DNA of 10,192 nucleotides from Promethearchaeota archaeon (GTDB lineage Archaea; Asgardarchaeota; Odinarchaeia; Odinarchaeales; JBHLKK01). Below, piece by piece: positions 3,988 to 10,192 of the stretch; the stretch's first letter is position 1, and each line of letters begins with the position of its first letter. The DNA is taken from assembly GCA_048939465.1 (NCBI GenBank), contig JBHLPL010000071.1, positions 1 to 10,192 of the forward strand, given 5' to 3'. Under the pieces are notes generated by a model. The model did not search any database, was not told where the DNA came from, and saw only the letters and a list, made by a program, of their open reading frames with translations. A program made the translations under genes and the position numbers.

Positions 3988-5313
3988 CTATATCTCCGTT
4001 AGGACTTTTCCAGAATGTACGGCAACATACCCACCTGAAAGCTGGAAATTCTCGACTTCACTGTCCACTTCTTGAACTGATTTCATAAGATTAATGCAAT
4101 TATCCGCAATCGTTGCCCCGTATACTGGTTTCTCCAGTTCACCTCGCTTGATTCTGTACGCCTGTATAACGGCTACTCCGAAGCTGCCAGTCACACTATT
4201 CGACGTGTGGGCTCCACTAACATCTCGTACATACCATCCCGAATCCAACTGTGTTGTCAAGGAACCCTTGGCAGTGGAAGGTATGAAGAAACTGTTCAAG
4301 GCAATAATGGGAACAGCATTGTAACTTCGCTGCGCATTGCCAGTACTTCCATTTCCTGTTCGGTTGCCCCACTCAATATCATAAATGAAGGATTTGAGTA
4401 TGCCTTTCTCAATTATCTTATTCTTTCTGATGGGAGTTCCCTCTCCATCATAGGGGTGCGAGTTAAACAAAGGCTCGAAGCTCCCCCAGTCATAAATTTG
4501 GAGCTTCTCGGAAGCTATTCTCTCGTTCAATAGATCGGCCAGAAAGCTTCGACCCCGATATACGTTTTCCCCATTTATGGCTGGTTCCAGCGTGTAGGAT
4601 AGCACTTGAGCAAAAGAGTCTGGATGAAATAATACAGGACCATTGATTATACTAACTCTTTTGGGTTTTAATGACTTGGTCAAAACATCAACAAACTCTT
4701 CGCTCAGCTTTTCTGTTGATTTTCCAATTCCCTTGGCCAGACATTCTGTGACTCCGCATTCAAGCGAGGGGGGATTCGTTGCTTTTCCCCCTATTCCTTT
4801 TTTGAGCAGCGACTTCTCATATTGGATATCTAATCCCAGAGTGTTTAGAATTCTTACTCTGCCTACGCCTCTGACAAGTCCTCCGCTAATTACTGCGTCT
4901 ATTCCCATTTTCTTGATGATATCCTGAGTATTATCTAACATGTTTCTTGCGTTTTCAACAAAGTAATCGTAAGGCAAGCTAGAGACTTCTGGATCAAGGA
5001 AATCCTTTGTTCGGTCCTTACTAGCTTCTGCGAAGCTTATGAAAGGATTTTCACGATTGATTTTTGCCAGGGCAATTGCCCTGTCCAGGCTCTTTTCCAG
5101 GCTTCTTTCCGTCATTGTATTTGTTGAGGAGAAACCCAGCTTATTTCCACGGATTATTCTGATCCCGACGCCTTTGGAAACTCCTGTTCCAAATTCATTT
5201 AAAACATTGTTCTCAAAGCTACAGTCAGTGATCTCTCGATAGGCGAAGAAGATCTCAGCCTCAACACCTTTCTTTTCAGCTTTCTTCATTGTCTTCTCCA
5301 ACATGTCCTTCAT
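3988..5313 (-). CDS. pmbA: PmbA/TldE family protein (non-catalytic partner of TldD)
   Basis: GVGIRIIRGNKLGFSST; FDGEG-like YDGEGTP; IIEKGILKSFIYD; STGNAQRS; V.GAHTSNSVTGSFGV. No HExxxH motif. Its ATG directly abuts the tldD stop (5314-5316). Confidence 0.9.
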   Translation of the reverse strand: MKDMLEKTMKKAEKKGVEAEIFFAYREITDCSFENNVLNEFGTGVSKGVGIRIIRGNKLGFSSTNTMTERSLEKSLDRAIALAKINRENPFISFAEASKDRTKDFLDPEVSSLPYDYFVENARNMLDNTQDIIKKMGIDAVISGGLVRGVGRVRILNTLGLDIQYEKSLLKKGIGGKATNPPSLECGVTECLAKGIGKSTEKLSEEFVDVLTKSLKPKRVSIINGPVLFHPDSFAQVLSYTLEPAINGENVYRGRSFLADLLNERIASEKLQIYDWGSFEPLFNSHPYDGEGTPIRKNKIIEKGILKSFIYDIEWGNRTGNGSTGNAQRSYNAVPIIALNSFFIPSTAKGSLTTQLDSGWYVRDVSGAHTSNSVTGSFGVAVIQAYRIKRGELEKPVYGATIADNCINLMKSVQEVDSEVENFQLSGGYVAVHSGKVLTEI

Positions 5314-6717
5314 CTACTCTCCTCCGATACTGAGCTTTGGAACTCTTATGGGGGGTCCACCGCTCCCAACACTTATCTGTTGCCCCTTTCCGCAAATGCC
5401 GATATCTGTCCCGAAATCCTTGCCGATCGCATCAAGCGTTTTCAGGGTTTCCAGAGTTGAACCGGAAATAGCAATATCCCGAATTGGAGTAGTTAATTGT
5501 CCTTTTTCAATTAACCACCCTACTTGCCCAGCAAACTGAAACATCCCAATCAAAGAAGCTTGACCACCCATGAACTTCTCGACATATATACCTCGGCGCA
5601 TATCTTCAATCAGTTCCTCAAAATCGAGATCGCCTCTTTCAAGATATGTATTTCGCATTCTAATCATGGGAGGTGCATGATAACTTGATGTTCGCGCATT
5701 ACCTGTAAGGTCTAGACCCAGCTTGGCAGCATATTCTCGGTTAACCATGAAAGTCCGTAGTACACCATCCTCAACCAGTATGGTTTTTTCACGCTTAACG
5801 CCTTCATCATCATAAGGAACCCAAGCACCATTTTGTCGAATACCGTCATCAATGATCGTTACCCCATTGTTGGCTATCTTAGTCTCGATCATGTCTTTGC
5901 TTAAGATTCCTCCGGCCATGACAAGATCCGCTTCACAAAGGTGGCCAAAGGCTTCATGAATCAACGTTCCGGTCATAGATTGGTCTAAGACGACCGAATA
6001 ATCCCCTTTTGGGGGTCTTCTACCTTTCAATGCAACCATTCCTCGGTTCAGAACCGAATCTGCCAGTTCGAAAGGTTTCCAACTGTTGCGCTCTCCGTAG
6101 AATTCTAATCCGTATGTTCCCCCAATTGCATCTGCAGTCTTTGCCAGTCTTCCGTCTTTTTGCAGCACAGCTGAAAAGGTCATTACAGTGAAGGGGGATT
6201 CCATTGCAATTTCTGATCCTTCGCTATTAACGAAGAACTCCTCCCCATACGATGCGGCAACGGAAATGGTGTAAGATTTTAGTGTTTTGAGGGTTTTGCT
6301 CTCGGACTGAAGTCTTTTGTGAAGTGATAGCGGTATACCGCAAATCTCGTCAACTGGGGTATTCTGAATGTTTCTTTTGCTCTTTACCTGCACTAGGTCC
6401 TGAATCGTTCTAGTTTCAGCTACTTCGAGAGTCTCGCTTCCTCTACTTCTACATGCTGCCTTAACCATATCCCTAACTTGATTCTGCATTTTTCCTCTGG
6501 AGGGATTGTCAAGAGATGAAAAATGCCACATATCATTCATCAAAAAGCGTACGCTCAGACCTCTATTCTCACTGAAATCGACTCTTTTTACTCCTTCTTC
6601 TGAGATTACTACTGTGAGAGATTCTGTAGATTCTGCTCTGGATTCTACCAGTTTAGTTCCTTGTTTTAAGGCCAGTTCCACGGACAGTCTAGCAAGATCC
6701 TTTAGATCTGTGGCCAT
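5314..6717 (-). CDS. tldD: TldD family metalloprotease
   Basis: Metal-binding HEAFGHLCEAD (5958-5941 for HEAFGH); YDDEGV; LVEDGVL; TGNAR..SY..PP.IRMRNTY; terminal CGKGQ..SVGSGGP with the conserved Cys. SD GGTGAGG precedes ATG 6717. Confidence 0.93.
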   Translation of the reverse strand: MATDLKDLARLSVELALKQGTKLVESRAESTESLTVVISEEGVKRVDFSENRGLSVRFLMNDMWHFSSLDNPSRGKMQNQVRDMVKAACRSRGSETLEVAETRTIQDLVQVKSKRNIQNTPVDEICGIPLSLHKRLQSESKTLKTLKSYTISVAASYGEEFFVNSEGSEIAMESPFTVMTFSAVLQKDGRLAKTADAIGGTYGLEFYGERNSWKPFELADSVLNRGMVALKGRRPPKGDYSVVLDQSMTGTLIHEAFGHLCEADLVMAGGILSKDMIETKIANNGVTIIDDGIRQNGAWVPYDDEGVKREKTILVEDGVLRTFMVNREYAAKLGLDLTGNARTSSYHAPPMIRMRNTYLERGDLDFEELIEDMRRGIYVEKFMGGQASLIGMFQFAGQVGWLIEKGQLTTPIRDIAISGSTLETLKTLDAIGKDFGTDIGICGKGQQISVGSGGPPIRVPKLSIGGE

Positions 6718-7273: not shown

Positions 7274-7313
7274 CAGAACTCCTCCTTATCGATCGTTAGC
7301 TTTAAGGTGAAGA

Positions 7314-7324
7314 TATTATTAAAA
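7314..7324 (-). promoter_or_regulatory. Putative TATA box (TTTTAATAATA) for the nitroreductase-tldD-pmbA operon
   Basis: AT-rich element ~40-50 nt upstream of ATG 7273 on the minus strand, consistent with a short SD-containing leader. Motif match only. Confidence 0.35.
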
Positions 7325-7346
7325 GGTGAAGGTTACGTGCACAAGG

Positions 7347-7354
7347 TTTAAATG
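7347..7354 (+). promoter_or_regulatory. Putative TATA box (TTTAAATG) for the leuS transcript
   Basis: TTTAAA preceded by ACAAGG. Typical archaeal spacing puts the TSS near 7375-7380, just before the uORF SD. Motif match only. Confidence 0.5.
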
Positions 7355-7380
7355 TGAGCAACCCACCTCTTGCTTCTAAC

Positions 7381-7417
7381 AAGGAGATGAAATGAAGTGG
7401 GGTATTGCATTCTCCTT
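7381..7417 (+). promoter_or_regulatory. 5' hairpin of the leuS leader, sequestering the uORF SD and start codon
   Basis: AAGGAGA (7381-87) pairs perfectly with TCTCCTT (7411-17). The stem continues inward as TG/CA, a 1x1 mismatch, then AATG/TATT (one G-U), with an 8-nt loop. Confidence 0.5.
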
Positions 7418-7487
7418 AGATAGTCTATTTTTGAAATTACCTTTAGTGATTCGCCCGTTCAGATTTTGGAGGAGTAATACGTGGTAG
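7392..7487 (+). CDS. Putative leuS leader peptide (uORF), MKWGIAFSLDSLFLKLPLVIRPFRFWRSNTW, 31 aa
   Basis: SD AAGGAG (7381-86) lies 5 nt before ATG 7392. Leu codons TTA, CTA, TTG, TTA, TTA fall at codons 9, 12, 14, 16 and 18. The TAG at 7485-87 overlaps the leuS start region (GTG 7481). Translation is not demonstrated. Confidence 0.45.
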   Translation: MKWGIAFSLDSLFLKLPLVIRPFRFWRSNTW

Positions 7488-10192
7488 ACTGGAAAACGGT
7501 TGAGTCAAAATGGCAAAAGAAGTGGCTTGATAGCAAGATTTTTGAAGCCGACCCAGATGAGCGAGATAAGATATTTGTTACATTTCCGTATCCGTACATG
7601 AATGGTCCATTTCATCTGGGACATGCCCTAACGTGTTCCAGGGTCGATATCTACGCCAGATTCAAGCGAATGCAAGGGTACAACGTGATGTTCCCCTTTG
7701 CTTTTCATGCCACTGGTGAGCCCGTAGCAGGAATAGCCGAGAGAGTTCGAAGAGGAGATCAAGATCAAATAGACATATTGATTAAGGGTGGAGTATCAGA
7801 GGCCGATATCAAGAATTTCGAAAATCCCGAATATATTGTCAACTACTACAGGAAAGAAACCACAGAAGCTGCAAAAGGGATGGGTTATTCTATAGATTGG
7901 CGAAGAAGCTTCATTACAATAGATACCCCATATGTTCGTTTTATTGAGTGGCAATACTTGACTTTACGCGAAAAAGGATATGTTAGTCTTGGTACTCATC
8001 CGGTCATTTGGTGTCCCAACTGCAAAAGCCCAACCGGAGATCATGACAGACTAGCTGGCGAGGGCATATCCCCTGTTGAATATACTGTACTGAAATTCAA
8101 ATATGGTGATGCTTGGCTGGTAATGGCCACATTAAGACCCGAAACCATATATGGTGTTGTCAATGTATGGATTAACCCCGATTCGATTCTCGTCACTGCA
8201 AAGGTAGACAACGAGAAATGGATAATGAGCAAAGAAGCAGCAGGGAAATTGAAGGAACAAGCCAAGAAAGTGGAAATCATTTCCGAATTTCGCGGCAGTG
8301 ATTTGATCGGCAGATACTGCACAAATCCCGTCTTGAATAATGATATACCCATACTCCCGGCGAGCTTTGTGGATCCAAGAAGTGCCACTGGGGTTGTTAT
8401 GAGCGTCCCCAGTCATGCTCCTTATGATTGGCTGGGTCTGAGAGACCTACAACTTCGTCCCGAAGAGTTGAAGAGATTTGGATTATCTTCGGATATACTG
8501 GATACTATTAGACCAATCTCTCTAATCAAGACCCCGGGACTAGGAGACCATCCTGGCTTAGATATAGTCAAACAAAGGAGGATTAAGGATCAGAACGATC
8601 CAAGAGCTGATGAAGCCACAAAAGAGATCTATAAGAAAGAATTTCATCAGGGCGTACTCAAAGAAAACACGGGCAAGTATGCGGGAATCCCGGTTCGTGA
8701 TATTAAGGATAGACTCGTCCAAGATTTCAAAGCACAAGGAATAGCGGATTCAATGTGGGAAACCGCAGACAAGGTTGTTTGTAGATGCAATTCACAATGC
8801 ATTGTTAAGATACTGGAGAATCAGTGGTTCCTGAATTATGGTGATCAGCAGTGGAAGGAAAAATCAAGAAAAGGCCTGAAGAACATAATAATCCTTCCAG
8901 AGGAGGCCAGATCTGCTTTCGAATACACCATCAACTGGCTTTCGGAAAAAGCATGTGTCAGAAGGACAGGGCTAGGGACCAGACTCCCTTGGGACCGGCA
9001 ATGGATAGTAGAGACACTTTCCGATTCAACTATTTATATGTCATTCTATACGATTGTCAACTTAATAGAAGAGAATAACATCCCTGCTGAGAAATTAATT
9101 CCAGAGGTCTTTGATTACGTACTTCTCGGAGAGGGTGATTGCAGAGAAGTATCAAAGGAGGCCAAGCTGGATCCAAAGCTACTGGAGGGCATGCGCAAGG
9201 AGTTCCTCTACTGGTACCCCGTGGATTTGCGCAATTCTGCGAAGGAGTTGATCTATAATCATTTGACTTTCTTCATATTTCAACATGTAGCGTTATTTCC
9301 CAAAGAGCTTTGGCCTAGAATGATCGGAGTGAACGGAATGTTGAGTATTGAAGGGATACCCATGTCAAAATCCCGTGGTGTTTTTACCACAGTAAGAGAA
9401 GTGCTGGAGAAGTACGGTGCAGATGCGACCAGGATCGAGCTGGCTTACTCATCGGAAGGTATGGCCGACCCGGATTGGAGGGCAAAAGATGCAGAAGGGC
9501 TGAGAGAGAGGTTAAACGCTTTACATGACTTCGCAACCGGGTTGCCTGAAACGAGCCAAGAGTACAGTGACATAGATTACTGGCTGACGAGTAGGATTCA
9601 TAGTAGAATTAAGAGAGCGACAGAACACTACGAGAGAATGGAAACAAGATCTGCGCTTCAGGAGGGCCTGTTTAACCTATATAATGATATCAGATGGTAT
9701 GTAAGGAGAGCCGACACTTATTCAAATGTGATTCAGCAGGCCATTGAAACGTTGGTTAAGCTAATTGTCCCTATTGTACCTCATATATGCGAGGAGATCT
9801 GGGAGAGGCTAGGTCACGAAGAGTTCTTATCTACGAGCAAATGGCCCGAATATGATGAAAAAAAGACAAATGAGGAACTGGACACTGGGGAGGAGCTTAT
9901 ATCGAGAGTGTTAGAGGATTCTAGAGAAATAATCAAGGTTTTGAAAATCAAGAAGCCAAAAGAATTGATTTTGTATGTGTCTCCTAACTGGAAATACGAA
10001 ATCTATGAAGAAATACGAAGGGGTACTGAAGATCTAATAAAACGAATAATGAAAAATCCCGAGATTAGGATGCATGCATCAGAAGCCACTGACTTCGCTA
10101 AGAAACTGATGAAGAGTCCGAACCTGCTGCCAGTACTGTCACCAAAGAGAGAATTCACGATCCTAACGGGTTCAAAATCATTCTTCACGAAG
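7481..10192 (+). CDS. leuS: Leucine--tRNA ligase, archaeal/eukaryotic type, 3' end outside the window
   Basis: Hand translation gives 904 codons with no stop from GTG 7481 (SD GGAGGAG 7468-74; in-frame TAA at 7475 excludes an earlier start). Motifs: TFPYPYMNGPFHLGH (HIGH motif, HLGH at 7613-24); CPNC..PTGDHDR; CP1 editing ATLRPET (8126-46) and ATGVVMSVPSHAPYD (8384-8428); GTRLPWD; SDSTIYM; MSKS (9362-73); KYGADATR; PHICEEIW. Confidence 0.97.
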   Translation, partial: MVDWKTVESKWQKKWLDSKIFEADPDERDKIFVTFPYPYMNGPFHLGHALTCSRVDIYARFKRMQGYNVMFPFAFHATGEPVAGIAERVRRGDQDQIDILIKGGVSEADIKNFENPEYIVNYYRKETTEAAKGMGYSIDWRRSFITIDTPYVRFIEWQYLTLREKGYVSLGTHPVIWCPNCKSPTGDHDRLAGEGISPVEYTVLKFKYGDAWLVMATLRPETIYGVVNVWINPDSILVTAKVDNEKWIMSKEAAGKLKEQAKKVEIISEFRGSDLIGRYCTNPVLNNDIPILPASFVDPRSATGVVMSVPSHAPYDWLGLRDLQLRPEELKRFGLSSDILDTIRPISLIKTPGLGDHPGLDIVKQRRIKDQNDPRADEATKEIYKKEFHQGVLKENTGKYAGIPVRDIKDRLVQDFKAQGIADSMWETADKVVCRCNSQCIVKILENQWFLNYGDQQWKEKSRKGLKNIIILPEEARSAFEYTINWLSEKACVRRTGLGTRLPWDRQWIVETLSDSTIYMSFYTIVNLIEENNIPAEKLIPEVFDYVLLGEGDCREVSKEAKLDPKLLEGMRKEFLYWYPVDLRNSAKELIYNHLTFFIFQHVALFPKELWPRMIGVNGMLSIEGIPMSKSRGVFTTVREVLEKYGADATRIELAYSSEGMADPDWRAKDAEGLRERLNALHDFATGLPETSQEYSDIDYWLTSRIHSRIKRATEHYERMETRSALQEGLFNLYNDIRWYVRRADTYSNVIQQAIETLVKLIVPIVPHICEEIWERLGHEEFLSTSKWPEYDEKKTNEELDTGEELISRVLEDSREIIKVLKIKKPKELILYVSPNWKYEIYEEIRRGTEDLIKRIMKNPEIRMHASEATDFAKKLMKSPNLLPVLSPKREFTILTGSKSFFTK

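Follow-up and report, generated by a model that had tools for sequence, protein, structure and literature searches.

How are aminoacyl-tRNA synthetase genes regulated in archaea without T-boxes or classical attenuators? The question is taken up here with a leuS locus of an Asgard archaeon, a member of the lineage closest to eukaryotes. The window, that is, the whole stretch of 10,192 nucleotides analysed here, is one entire contig (C133) of a 1.96-Mb, 91% complete genome (G000), and its DNA is present in mangrove and sediment metagenomes. No RNA run is listed among the sequencing runs containing it, and a search of one DNA run at the raw-read level gave no reads from this stretch. An archaeal-type leucine-tRNA ligase gene (leuS) occupies positions 7481-10192 of the plus strand, on which all features below lie unless stated otherwise. 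It matches TIGR00395 (leuS_arch) with 1079 bits against a cut-off of 648.5, and its coding end lies beyond the contig end. Its Shine-Dalgarno (SD) sequence, GGAGGAG at 7468-7474, has an aligned spacing of 7. The TATA-like box pointed out by the sequence-only reading is indeed present (TTTAAAT, 7347-7353) and is found in both congeners; I infer that the leader/leuS transcript starts at about 7375-7380. A nitroreductase-family gene runs divergently to leuS from 7273. The interval 7276-7345 holds its back-to-back promoter, with a TTTTAATA-like box near 7316-7323 and an SD near 7279-7287 on the minus strand, and both congeners keep it. Adjacent ORFs of 441 and 467 amino acids on the minus strand (3988-6717) resemble what I take to be a TldD/PmbA pair. 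A tRNA scan of the window yielded no tRNAs, and a DNA search with the spacer had matches in the two congeners only. No match to a LeuA-type (HMGL-like) gene was found in the genome at its 91% completeness. Thus, leucine may be externally supplied, and this archaeon is a possible leucine auxotroph.

The sequence-only reading had proposed that a 31-codon ORF starting at ATG 7392 controls leuS through a cluster of Leu codons. The letters were confirmed: an SD (AAGGAG, 7381-7386) lies five nucleotides before the ATG, and the 31 codons include L-D-S-L-F-L-K-L-P-L, with three TTA, one CTA and one TTG. The claimed overlap with leuS exists as a 7-nt overlap, but the stop codon (TAG, 7485-7487) sits in leuS codons 2-3 and not on the GTG start codon. 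The caution that the Leu count is modest was justified (five Leu in 31 codons, P = 0.18 at the genome's 9.7% Leu); five Leu in ten codons are seen in 3.4% of open shuffles. When relatives were aligned, the expected conservation of this ORF failed: the ATG is missing in the congener G001, where the same frame has a TGA at codon 3. Likewise, a related strain (about 90% alike; a single contig at a depth of about 5) has a G7400A change, giving a TGA at codon 3 of the 31-codon frame. Thus, conservation does not extend to the 31-codon ORF in the form proposed. The aligned SD spacing of the ATG is 3, while the genome has a mode of 6-7 and a range of 6-9. By conservation and by SD spacing, the ATG (7392-7394) is lineage-specific and probably incidental, although it could provide a basal leak into the frame discussed below. 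What goes far beyond chance in the 31-codon frame is the part after 7412 and its stop codon at the leuS start.

Which unit is conserved, then? It was found that a shorter uORF of eight codons, MGYCILLR* (7397-7423), starts at GTG 7397 in another frame. The congeners have MRYCVLLQ* and MGYCILLK*. Its SD, AGGAGATGA at 7382-7390, has an aligned spacing of 8 to the GTG, which falls in the genome's 6-9 range (mode 6-7). With a weight matrix, the motif was found before leuS at 69 of 111 Asgard loci belonging to 14 families, and at 0 of 111 on the other strand. All of these 69 leaders have an in-frame start 4-8 codons 5′ of a Leu codon and an in-frame stop 0-9 codons 3′ of it, and the SD score is at least 4 in 67 of them, compared with 48% of control positions. 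The Leu codon, hereafter called the control codon, is CUC in the window (7412-7414); among the leaders it is CUC in 43, CUU in 17 and CUA in 9. As in leader peptides, there is a uORF with an SD, a start codon and a cognate codon; rather than a run of cognate codons, there is a single fixed Leu codon, with a second Leu in 17 of the 69. The idea of a translated leader sensing Leu-tRNA is therefore partly retained: leuS appears to have one and the overlap seems to matter, but the start, the sensor and the mechanism had been assigned wrongly. The sensor would be the one conserved CUC in the frame of GTG 7397 instead of the Leu cluster.

The leader of family f6 also stands before a named Thorarchaeota leuS, which agrees with an Asgard identity of this phylum. 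Such leaders were not found at about 40 non-Asgard archaeal leuS loci searched, nor before leuS in the sampled families f2, f7, f9, f11, f16, f17, f19, f27 and f28. The congener G002 has a broken orthologous leuS (L124, contig C176) whose leader is still present, and also a second, distant leuS (L054, C35) with a leader resembling that of family f12; the latter gene is either a replacement by transfer or bin contamination. A U5 tract lies just 3′ of the uORF stop in the window (7428-7432) and is a possible FttA/aCPSF1 signal. T4 tracts occur at +6 to +44 in 48 of 69 leaders, a weak enrichment over the 21 of 69 upstream and the 37 of 69 further downstream. Thorarchaeia-type leaders (such as L075, L078 and L222) have a second fixed motif about 20-45 nt 3′ of the Leu codon, consisting of a U-tract, CGAG and then UUUAUAG; its +1 reading is F-C-E-S-F-I, with the AUA invariant. 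This motif may represent a TATA box or a terminator, or else another slippery/hungry pair.

Is the control codon specific to leucine? In this genome, ileS has a leader ending in R-D-R-E-I and valS has one ending in R-A-C-F-V, both with the spacing seen at leuS. To assess the association, matches were collected by a rule that takes no account of the last three scaffold codons and is blind to the control codon, which is the fifth. The control codon was Leu at 66 of 74 leuS matches, Ile at 25 of 25 ileS matches and Val at 7 of 10 valS matches; on the reverse strand the same rule gave eight matches with mixed codons. Thus, the control codon follows the downstream synthetase, which points to an element that senses how much of the cognate aminoacyl-tRNA is available. 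The leader is absent before this genome's genes for the Pro, His, Ser, Gly, Asp, Glu, Trp, Tyr, Arg, Ala, Lys, Met, two Cys and Phe alpha synthetases, whose identities were taken from Pfam matches and reading of the sequences. One ileS gene (leader L293 of G131) is preceded by tandem cassettes, MRDHEI... and MRNHEI.... A different, multicopy element occurs in G000 at C84:8649-8753 (minus), C41:8644-8728 (minus) and at least 15 further places, mostly as two parts about 200 nt apart. Joined copies lie about 200 nt before cysS and tyrS, and one copy adjoins a TnpB-like-looking ORF (C70). It is probably a non-autonomous remnant of the IS605 type and not specific to synthetases.

Seen from the control codon, the 31-codon frame is the +1 frame, which is most likely entered by frameshifting, as its constraints suggest. 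In the window it comprises 24 codons and a TAG (7413-7487), the 3′ part of the ORF drawn earlier, and it ends 4 nt past the first base of the leuS start. None of the 69 leaders has a +1 stop in the first 17 codons counted from codon -4, while frame 0 has a median of 2 codons to its stop. At 65 of 69 loci, drawn from 13 of 14 families, the +1 frame runs on without a stop until it is within 15 nt of the leuS start; shuffles predict 12.5 such loci. Since the genomes are related, such raw counts overstate the case; a conservative product with one leader per family is about 1e-11. Leader length ranges from 55 to 310 nt, and the open set includes seven leaders of 246-308 nt. A +1 stop lies within 15 nt of the leuS start, which was chosen by script like those of the other synthetases, at 57 of 69 loci, compared with 6 of 69 for the third frame. 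The stop/start overlap is exact at 41 of 69 (16 of the ATGA type and 25 of the ATGNNTGA type). Thus, a stop codon overlapping or near a downstream start with an SD is present, as in termination-reinitiation. Twelve leaders outside the set used to build the motif all follow the same pattern (6 of 6 further loci and 6 of 6 leaders of about 200 nt). At two loci, L017 (G019) and L073 (G100), the +1 frame continues directly into the leuS reading frame, and frameshifting there would yield LeuRS with an N-terminal extension, as in prfB.

How could ribosomes reach this frame? At 40 of 69 loci, from 11 families, it has no ATG, GTG or TTG upstream, and at 38 of 69 it is shut by a TGA within the uORF start (ATG-AGG). 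A downstream start with an SD in the +1 frame occurs at one of 69. As the frame lacks its own start and is closed at the uORF start, ribosomes must come in from another frame. In the nine leaders (three families) whose control codon is CUA, the next base is C or U in every case, so that the first +1 codon is never UAA or UAG. The +1 frame also avoids the cognate codons. At leuS, CUH codons occur at 0.26 times the expectation (35 seen, 136 expected) and AUY at 1.18 times; at ileS the values are 0.36 for AUY and 1.13 for CUH; at valS, with seven loci only, they are 0.41 for GUY and 1.79 for GUR. Of the codons at leuS, CUH make up 2.1% in the +1 frame and 7.7% and 6.8% in the other two. With one leader per family, the depletion is about twofold, and the +1 frame is the lowest of the three in 8 of 14 families. 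The five Leu codons in the window's own +1 frame (four UUR, one CUA) run opposite to the family trend. The sequence of the +1 peptide is not conserved among leaders and diverges freely; a function of this peptide is therefore unlikely.

The sister leaders share the open frame, which reaches the start at 21 of 28 ileS and 7 of 7 valS loci. The seven ileS leaders that have not kept it include six (L151, L152, L155, L268, L281 and L283, from families f7 and f19 and from G160) whose -1 frame is open to the start, and five of these six are without the AGG motif. Although the numbers are small, this suggests a -1 version of the switch at some ileS genes.

At the proposed shift site, the P-site codon AUU (7409-7411) precedes the control codon and could re-pair on UUC (7410-7412) after a +1 slip. 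The codon at this position is GUU, AUU, CUU, UUU or AAU at leuS, CAA, AAA, GAA or UUU at ileS, and UUU or AAA at valS. After a +1 slip, two or more pairs would remain with any of these codons, a property of 19-20 of the 61 codons, while the same score is reached in 3 to 33 of 69 leaders at neighbouring positions. NUU is favoured by the leuS matrix itself; the ileS and valS sets, however, were collected without regard to the slippery codon. Most of the re-pairings hold only two of three pairs (GUU to UUC, CAA to AAA). An internal SD-like hexamer, GUGGGG in the window (7397-7402), ends 6 nt before the slippery codon. Its consensus at codons -5/-4 is AUGAGG or AGGAUG, each one mismatch from AGGAGG and in the same register; some families have a GGUGA variant, the other half of the SD. 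The hexamer is present even where it is non-coding or is not the start codon. Bacterial +1 stimulators have the SD 3 nt from the shift site (PMC5009743), and the 6-nt spacing here makes the role of the motif uncertain. It may be a milder stimulator fitting the genome's longer spacing, or an anchor against drop-off of a five-residue peptidyl-tRNA. A conserved shift site is joined to a conserved open new frame, as expected of regulatory frameshifting. Transcriptional slippage was rejected, as the site has no long homopolymer and slippage would have no link to an amino acid; a -2 shift was rejected because re-pairing would be impossible.

Taken together, I propose that the leuS leader senses charged tRNA-Leu through a hungry-codon +1 programmed frameshift followed by termination-reinitiation on leuS, and I give this reading a probability of about 0.8. 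The ribosome is predicted to initiate at GTG 7397, where SD, start and frame are conserved. When Leu-tRNA is plentiful, it would read the CUC, terminate at UAG 7421 and be released 57 nt upstream of leuS, so that leuS output would be low. When Leu-tRNA(GAG) is short, the A site would stay empty at the CUC and the peptidyl-tRNA-Ile would slip from AUU to UUC, with the internal SD-like hexamer helping or holding the slip by pairing with 16S rRNA. The slip is deduced from the sequence constraints and from known hungry-codon and prfB frameshifting; +1 shifts are favoured by slow A-site decoding (PMC5009743). The shifted ribosome would bypass the early stop, cross the leader in the +1 frame and terminate in the leuS start region, and may then reinitiate on leuS by way of the SD at 7468-7474. 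In Haloferax, overlapping stop/start pairs are strictly coupled by termination-reinitiation (PMC6728339). By staying on the nascent transcript, the ribosome may in addition protect the RNA against termination by FttA, and the extra LeuRS would recharge tRNA-Leu and close the loop. The ileS and valS leaders would be the same device with Ile and Val codons. The predicted accessibility of the leuS SD is 0.42, compared with 0.39 for ordinary genes. Since the SD is as accessible as those of ordinary genes, de novo initiation on leuS would have to be kept at a low basal level either by a family-particular structure or by FttA termination on U-rich RNA free of ribosomes (PMC13681488).

What else could the leader do? 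The strongest of the improbable alternatives is attenuation by stalling without a shift: as in tnaC, a ribosome on the Leu codon would block loading of FttA/aCPSF1 on the U-tract. A cognate codon at a fixed place and the T4 tracts at +6 to +44 agree with it, and archaeal termination does use U-rich RNA and FttA (PMC13681488), but U-tracts are nearly as frequent later and are missing in several leaders. Moreover, stalling would leave unexplained the open +1 frame, its stop at the start, the slippery codon and the depletion of cognate codons. Within the frameshift model, it may still contribute a second layer of output. Considerably less probable is a switch like the LEU element, in which the Leu codons (UUCUCCUU) pair with the leuS SD until a stalled ribosome frees it. 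One minimum-energy fold does pair 7406-7420 with this SD, and two families have helices of their own, but the window folds no better than shuffles (z = -0.31), masking of the Leu region moves SD accessibility only from 0.42 to 0.44 over the 69 leaders, and the ileS and valS leaders have no anti-SD. A universal RNA structure was rejected, as none is shared across families, and an anti-SD switch would again give no reason for the +1-frame constraints.

Equally hard to credit are two overlapping uORFs without slippage, the +1 frame being entered at a near-cognate start (AUU, AUA, AUC or GUG) or by backward reinitiation. An AUH does lie in the +1 frame within the cassette, and at some loci a GUG or AUG; however, their SD spacings are unsuitable, being 0-4 nt for the internal SD or about 15 nt for the initiation SD, whereas the genome uses 6-9. 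The 40 of 69 loci without a canonical start also speak against this reading, which leaves the slippery codon and the fixed cognate codon without a reason. The model of the sequence-only reading, a 31-codon ORF from ATG 7392 sensing leucine through five Leu codons, now seems barely tenable: its frame, Leu cluster and overlap all exist, but its ATG is not conserved, its frame is closed at codon 3 in G001 and the near strain, its Leu count is ordinary and relatives are depleted in Leu codons there. Least probable of all, at a negligible level, is an untranslated site such as a DNA operator, a protein-binding site on RNA (GAG-N10-CTC) or a T-box-like specifier. In its favour are unusually fixed third codon positions and a weak palindrome, but SD, start and stop share one frame in 69 of 69 leaders, the codon switches with the synthetase, and triplet-wise constraints extend over up to 100 codons. 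The leader also belongs to no Rfam family; an Rfam scan gave no match but one chance hit (E = 5.8). A T-box riboswitch was likewise rejected, with no Rfam match and the control codon inside an ORF.

Sequence comparison across the loci makes it probable, if slightly less so than the leuS reading itself, that such leaders work phylum-wide: starvation would trigger a programmed +1 frameshift (-1 in a few lineages) and thereby bring ribosomes to the gene of the cognate synthetase. This would be a third control beside attenuators and T-boxes, the first natural hungry-codon sensor and the first archaeal +1 programmed frameshift. If true, starvation-induced frameshifting, long seen as an error, becomes a selected sensor; anti-SD pairing by elongating archaeal ribosomes would be shown; and the 20-nt cassette would be a portable amino-acid-specific switch, whose input is changed by changing one codon. 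A review of 2016 knew of no starvation-specific use of hungry-codon shifting (PMC5009743). A literature search, with most subscription journals outside its coverage, found no published description of this element. Archaeal recoding has almost no examples, and frameshifting goes unmentioned in PMC5370408. The archaeal fucA1 (PMC8211752) also has a programmed frameshift, but it is a -1 shift within a gene and without a known sensing role; a review of 2021 named it as the only reported archaeal -1 case (PMC8211752).

How does the leader compare with known systems? The closest resemblance is to prfB (PMC5009743), which also has a short zero frame, an internal SD-like motif, a slippery P-site codon, a +1 shift and negative feedback, the regulated product being needed to decode a slow A-site codon. 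In contrast, the A-site codon here is a cognate sense codon instead of UGA, the SD-like motif is 6 nt instead of 3 nt upstream, and the +1 frame ends at the start of the protein, being fused to it at 2 of 69 loci, in an archaeon. Of the prfB-type cassette, thus, the slippery P-site codon is found, and the 3-nt SD, the A-site stop and, as a rule, the fused product are not. Yeast Ty1, ABP140 and EST3 shifts of the CUU_AGG_C type and E. coli hungry-codon shifts (PMC5009743) also have a P-site tRNA slipping +1 before a slow A-site sense codon, but there the codon is constitutively rare and a fused protein is made. On the output side, frameshifting that acts via ribosome movement on a downstream ORF is a recognized class, with ermCL as the example (PMC5009743). 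In ketolide-induced ermCL, frame-changed leader ribosomes likewise enter the spacer and switch on the downstream gene. Unlike here, the trigger is an antibiotic and largely sequence-independent, the output is the unfolding of an mRNA hairpin, and the description includes neither a cognate control codon nor a conserved stop/start overlap (PMC5009743).

As for sensing, E. coli pheM-pheST and the predicted Streptomyces leuS and trpS attenuators (PMC1262725) share with the leader a cognate-codon uORF, sensing of charged tRNA and a synthetase target. They differ in that the leader has a single control codon and not a run of them, lacks a conserved terminator/antiterminator, and has a conserved open +1 frame, which they do not need; a search for classical attenuator hairpins with a U-tract gave no structure shared across families, and the window folded like shuffles. 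The actinobacterial leuA LEU element (PMC1262725) also has a Leu-codon uORF, and in this genus the Leu codons can pair with the downstream SD. However, the leader has no conserved stem or pseudoknot sequestering the SD and no general SD pairing, and Ile and Val sisters exist. As proposed, the leader would act in the manner of prfB, with an output like that of ermCL frameshifting or ordinary coupled gene pairs. Its task would be the one that pheM or T-boxes carry out elsewhere, but it is a member of neither, nor of the prfB or LEU class; it is a variant of regulatory frameshifting that comes close to a class of its own.
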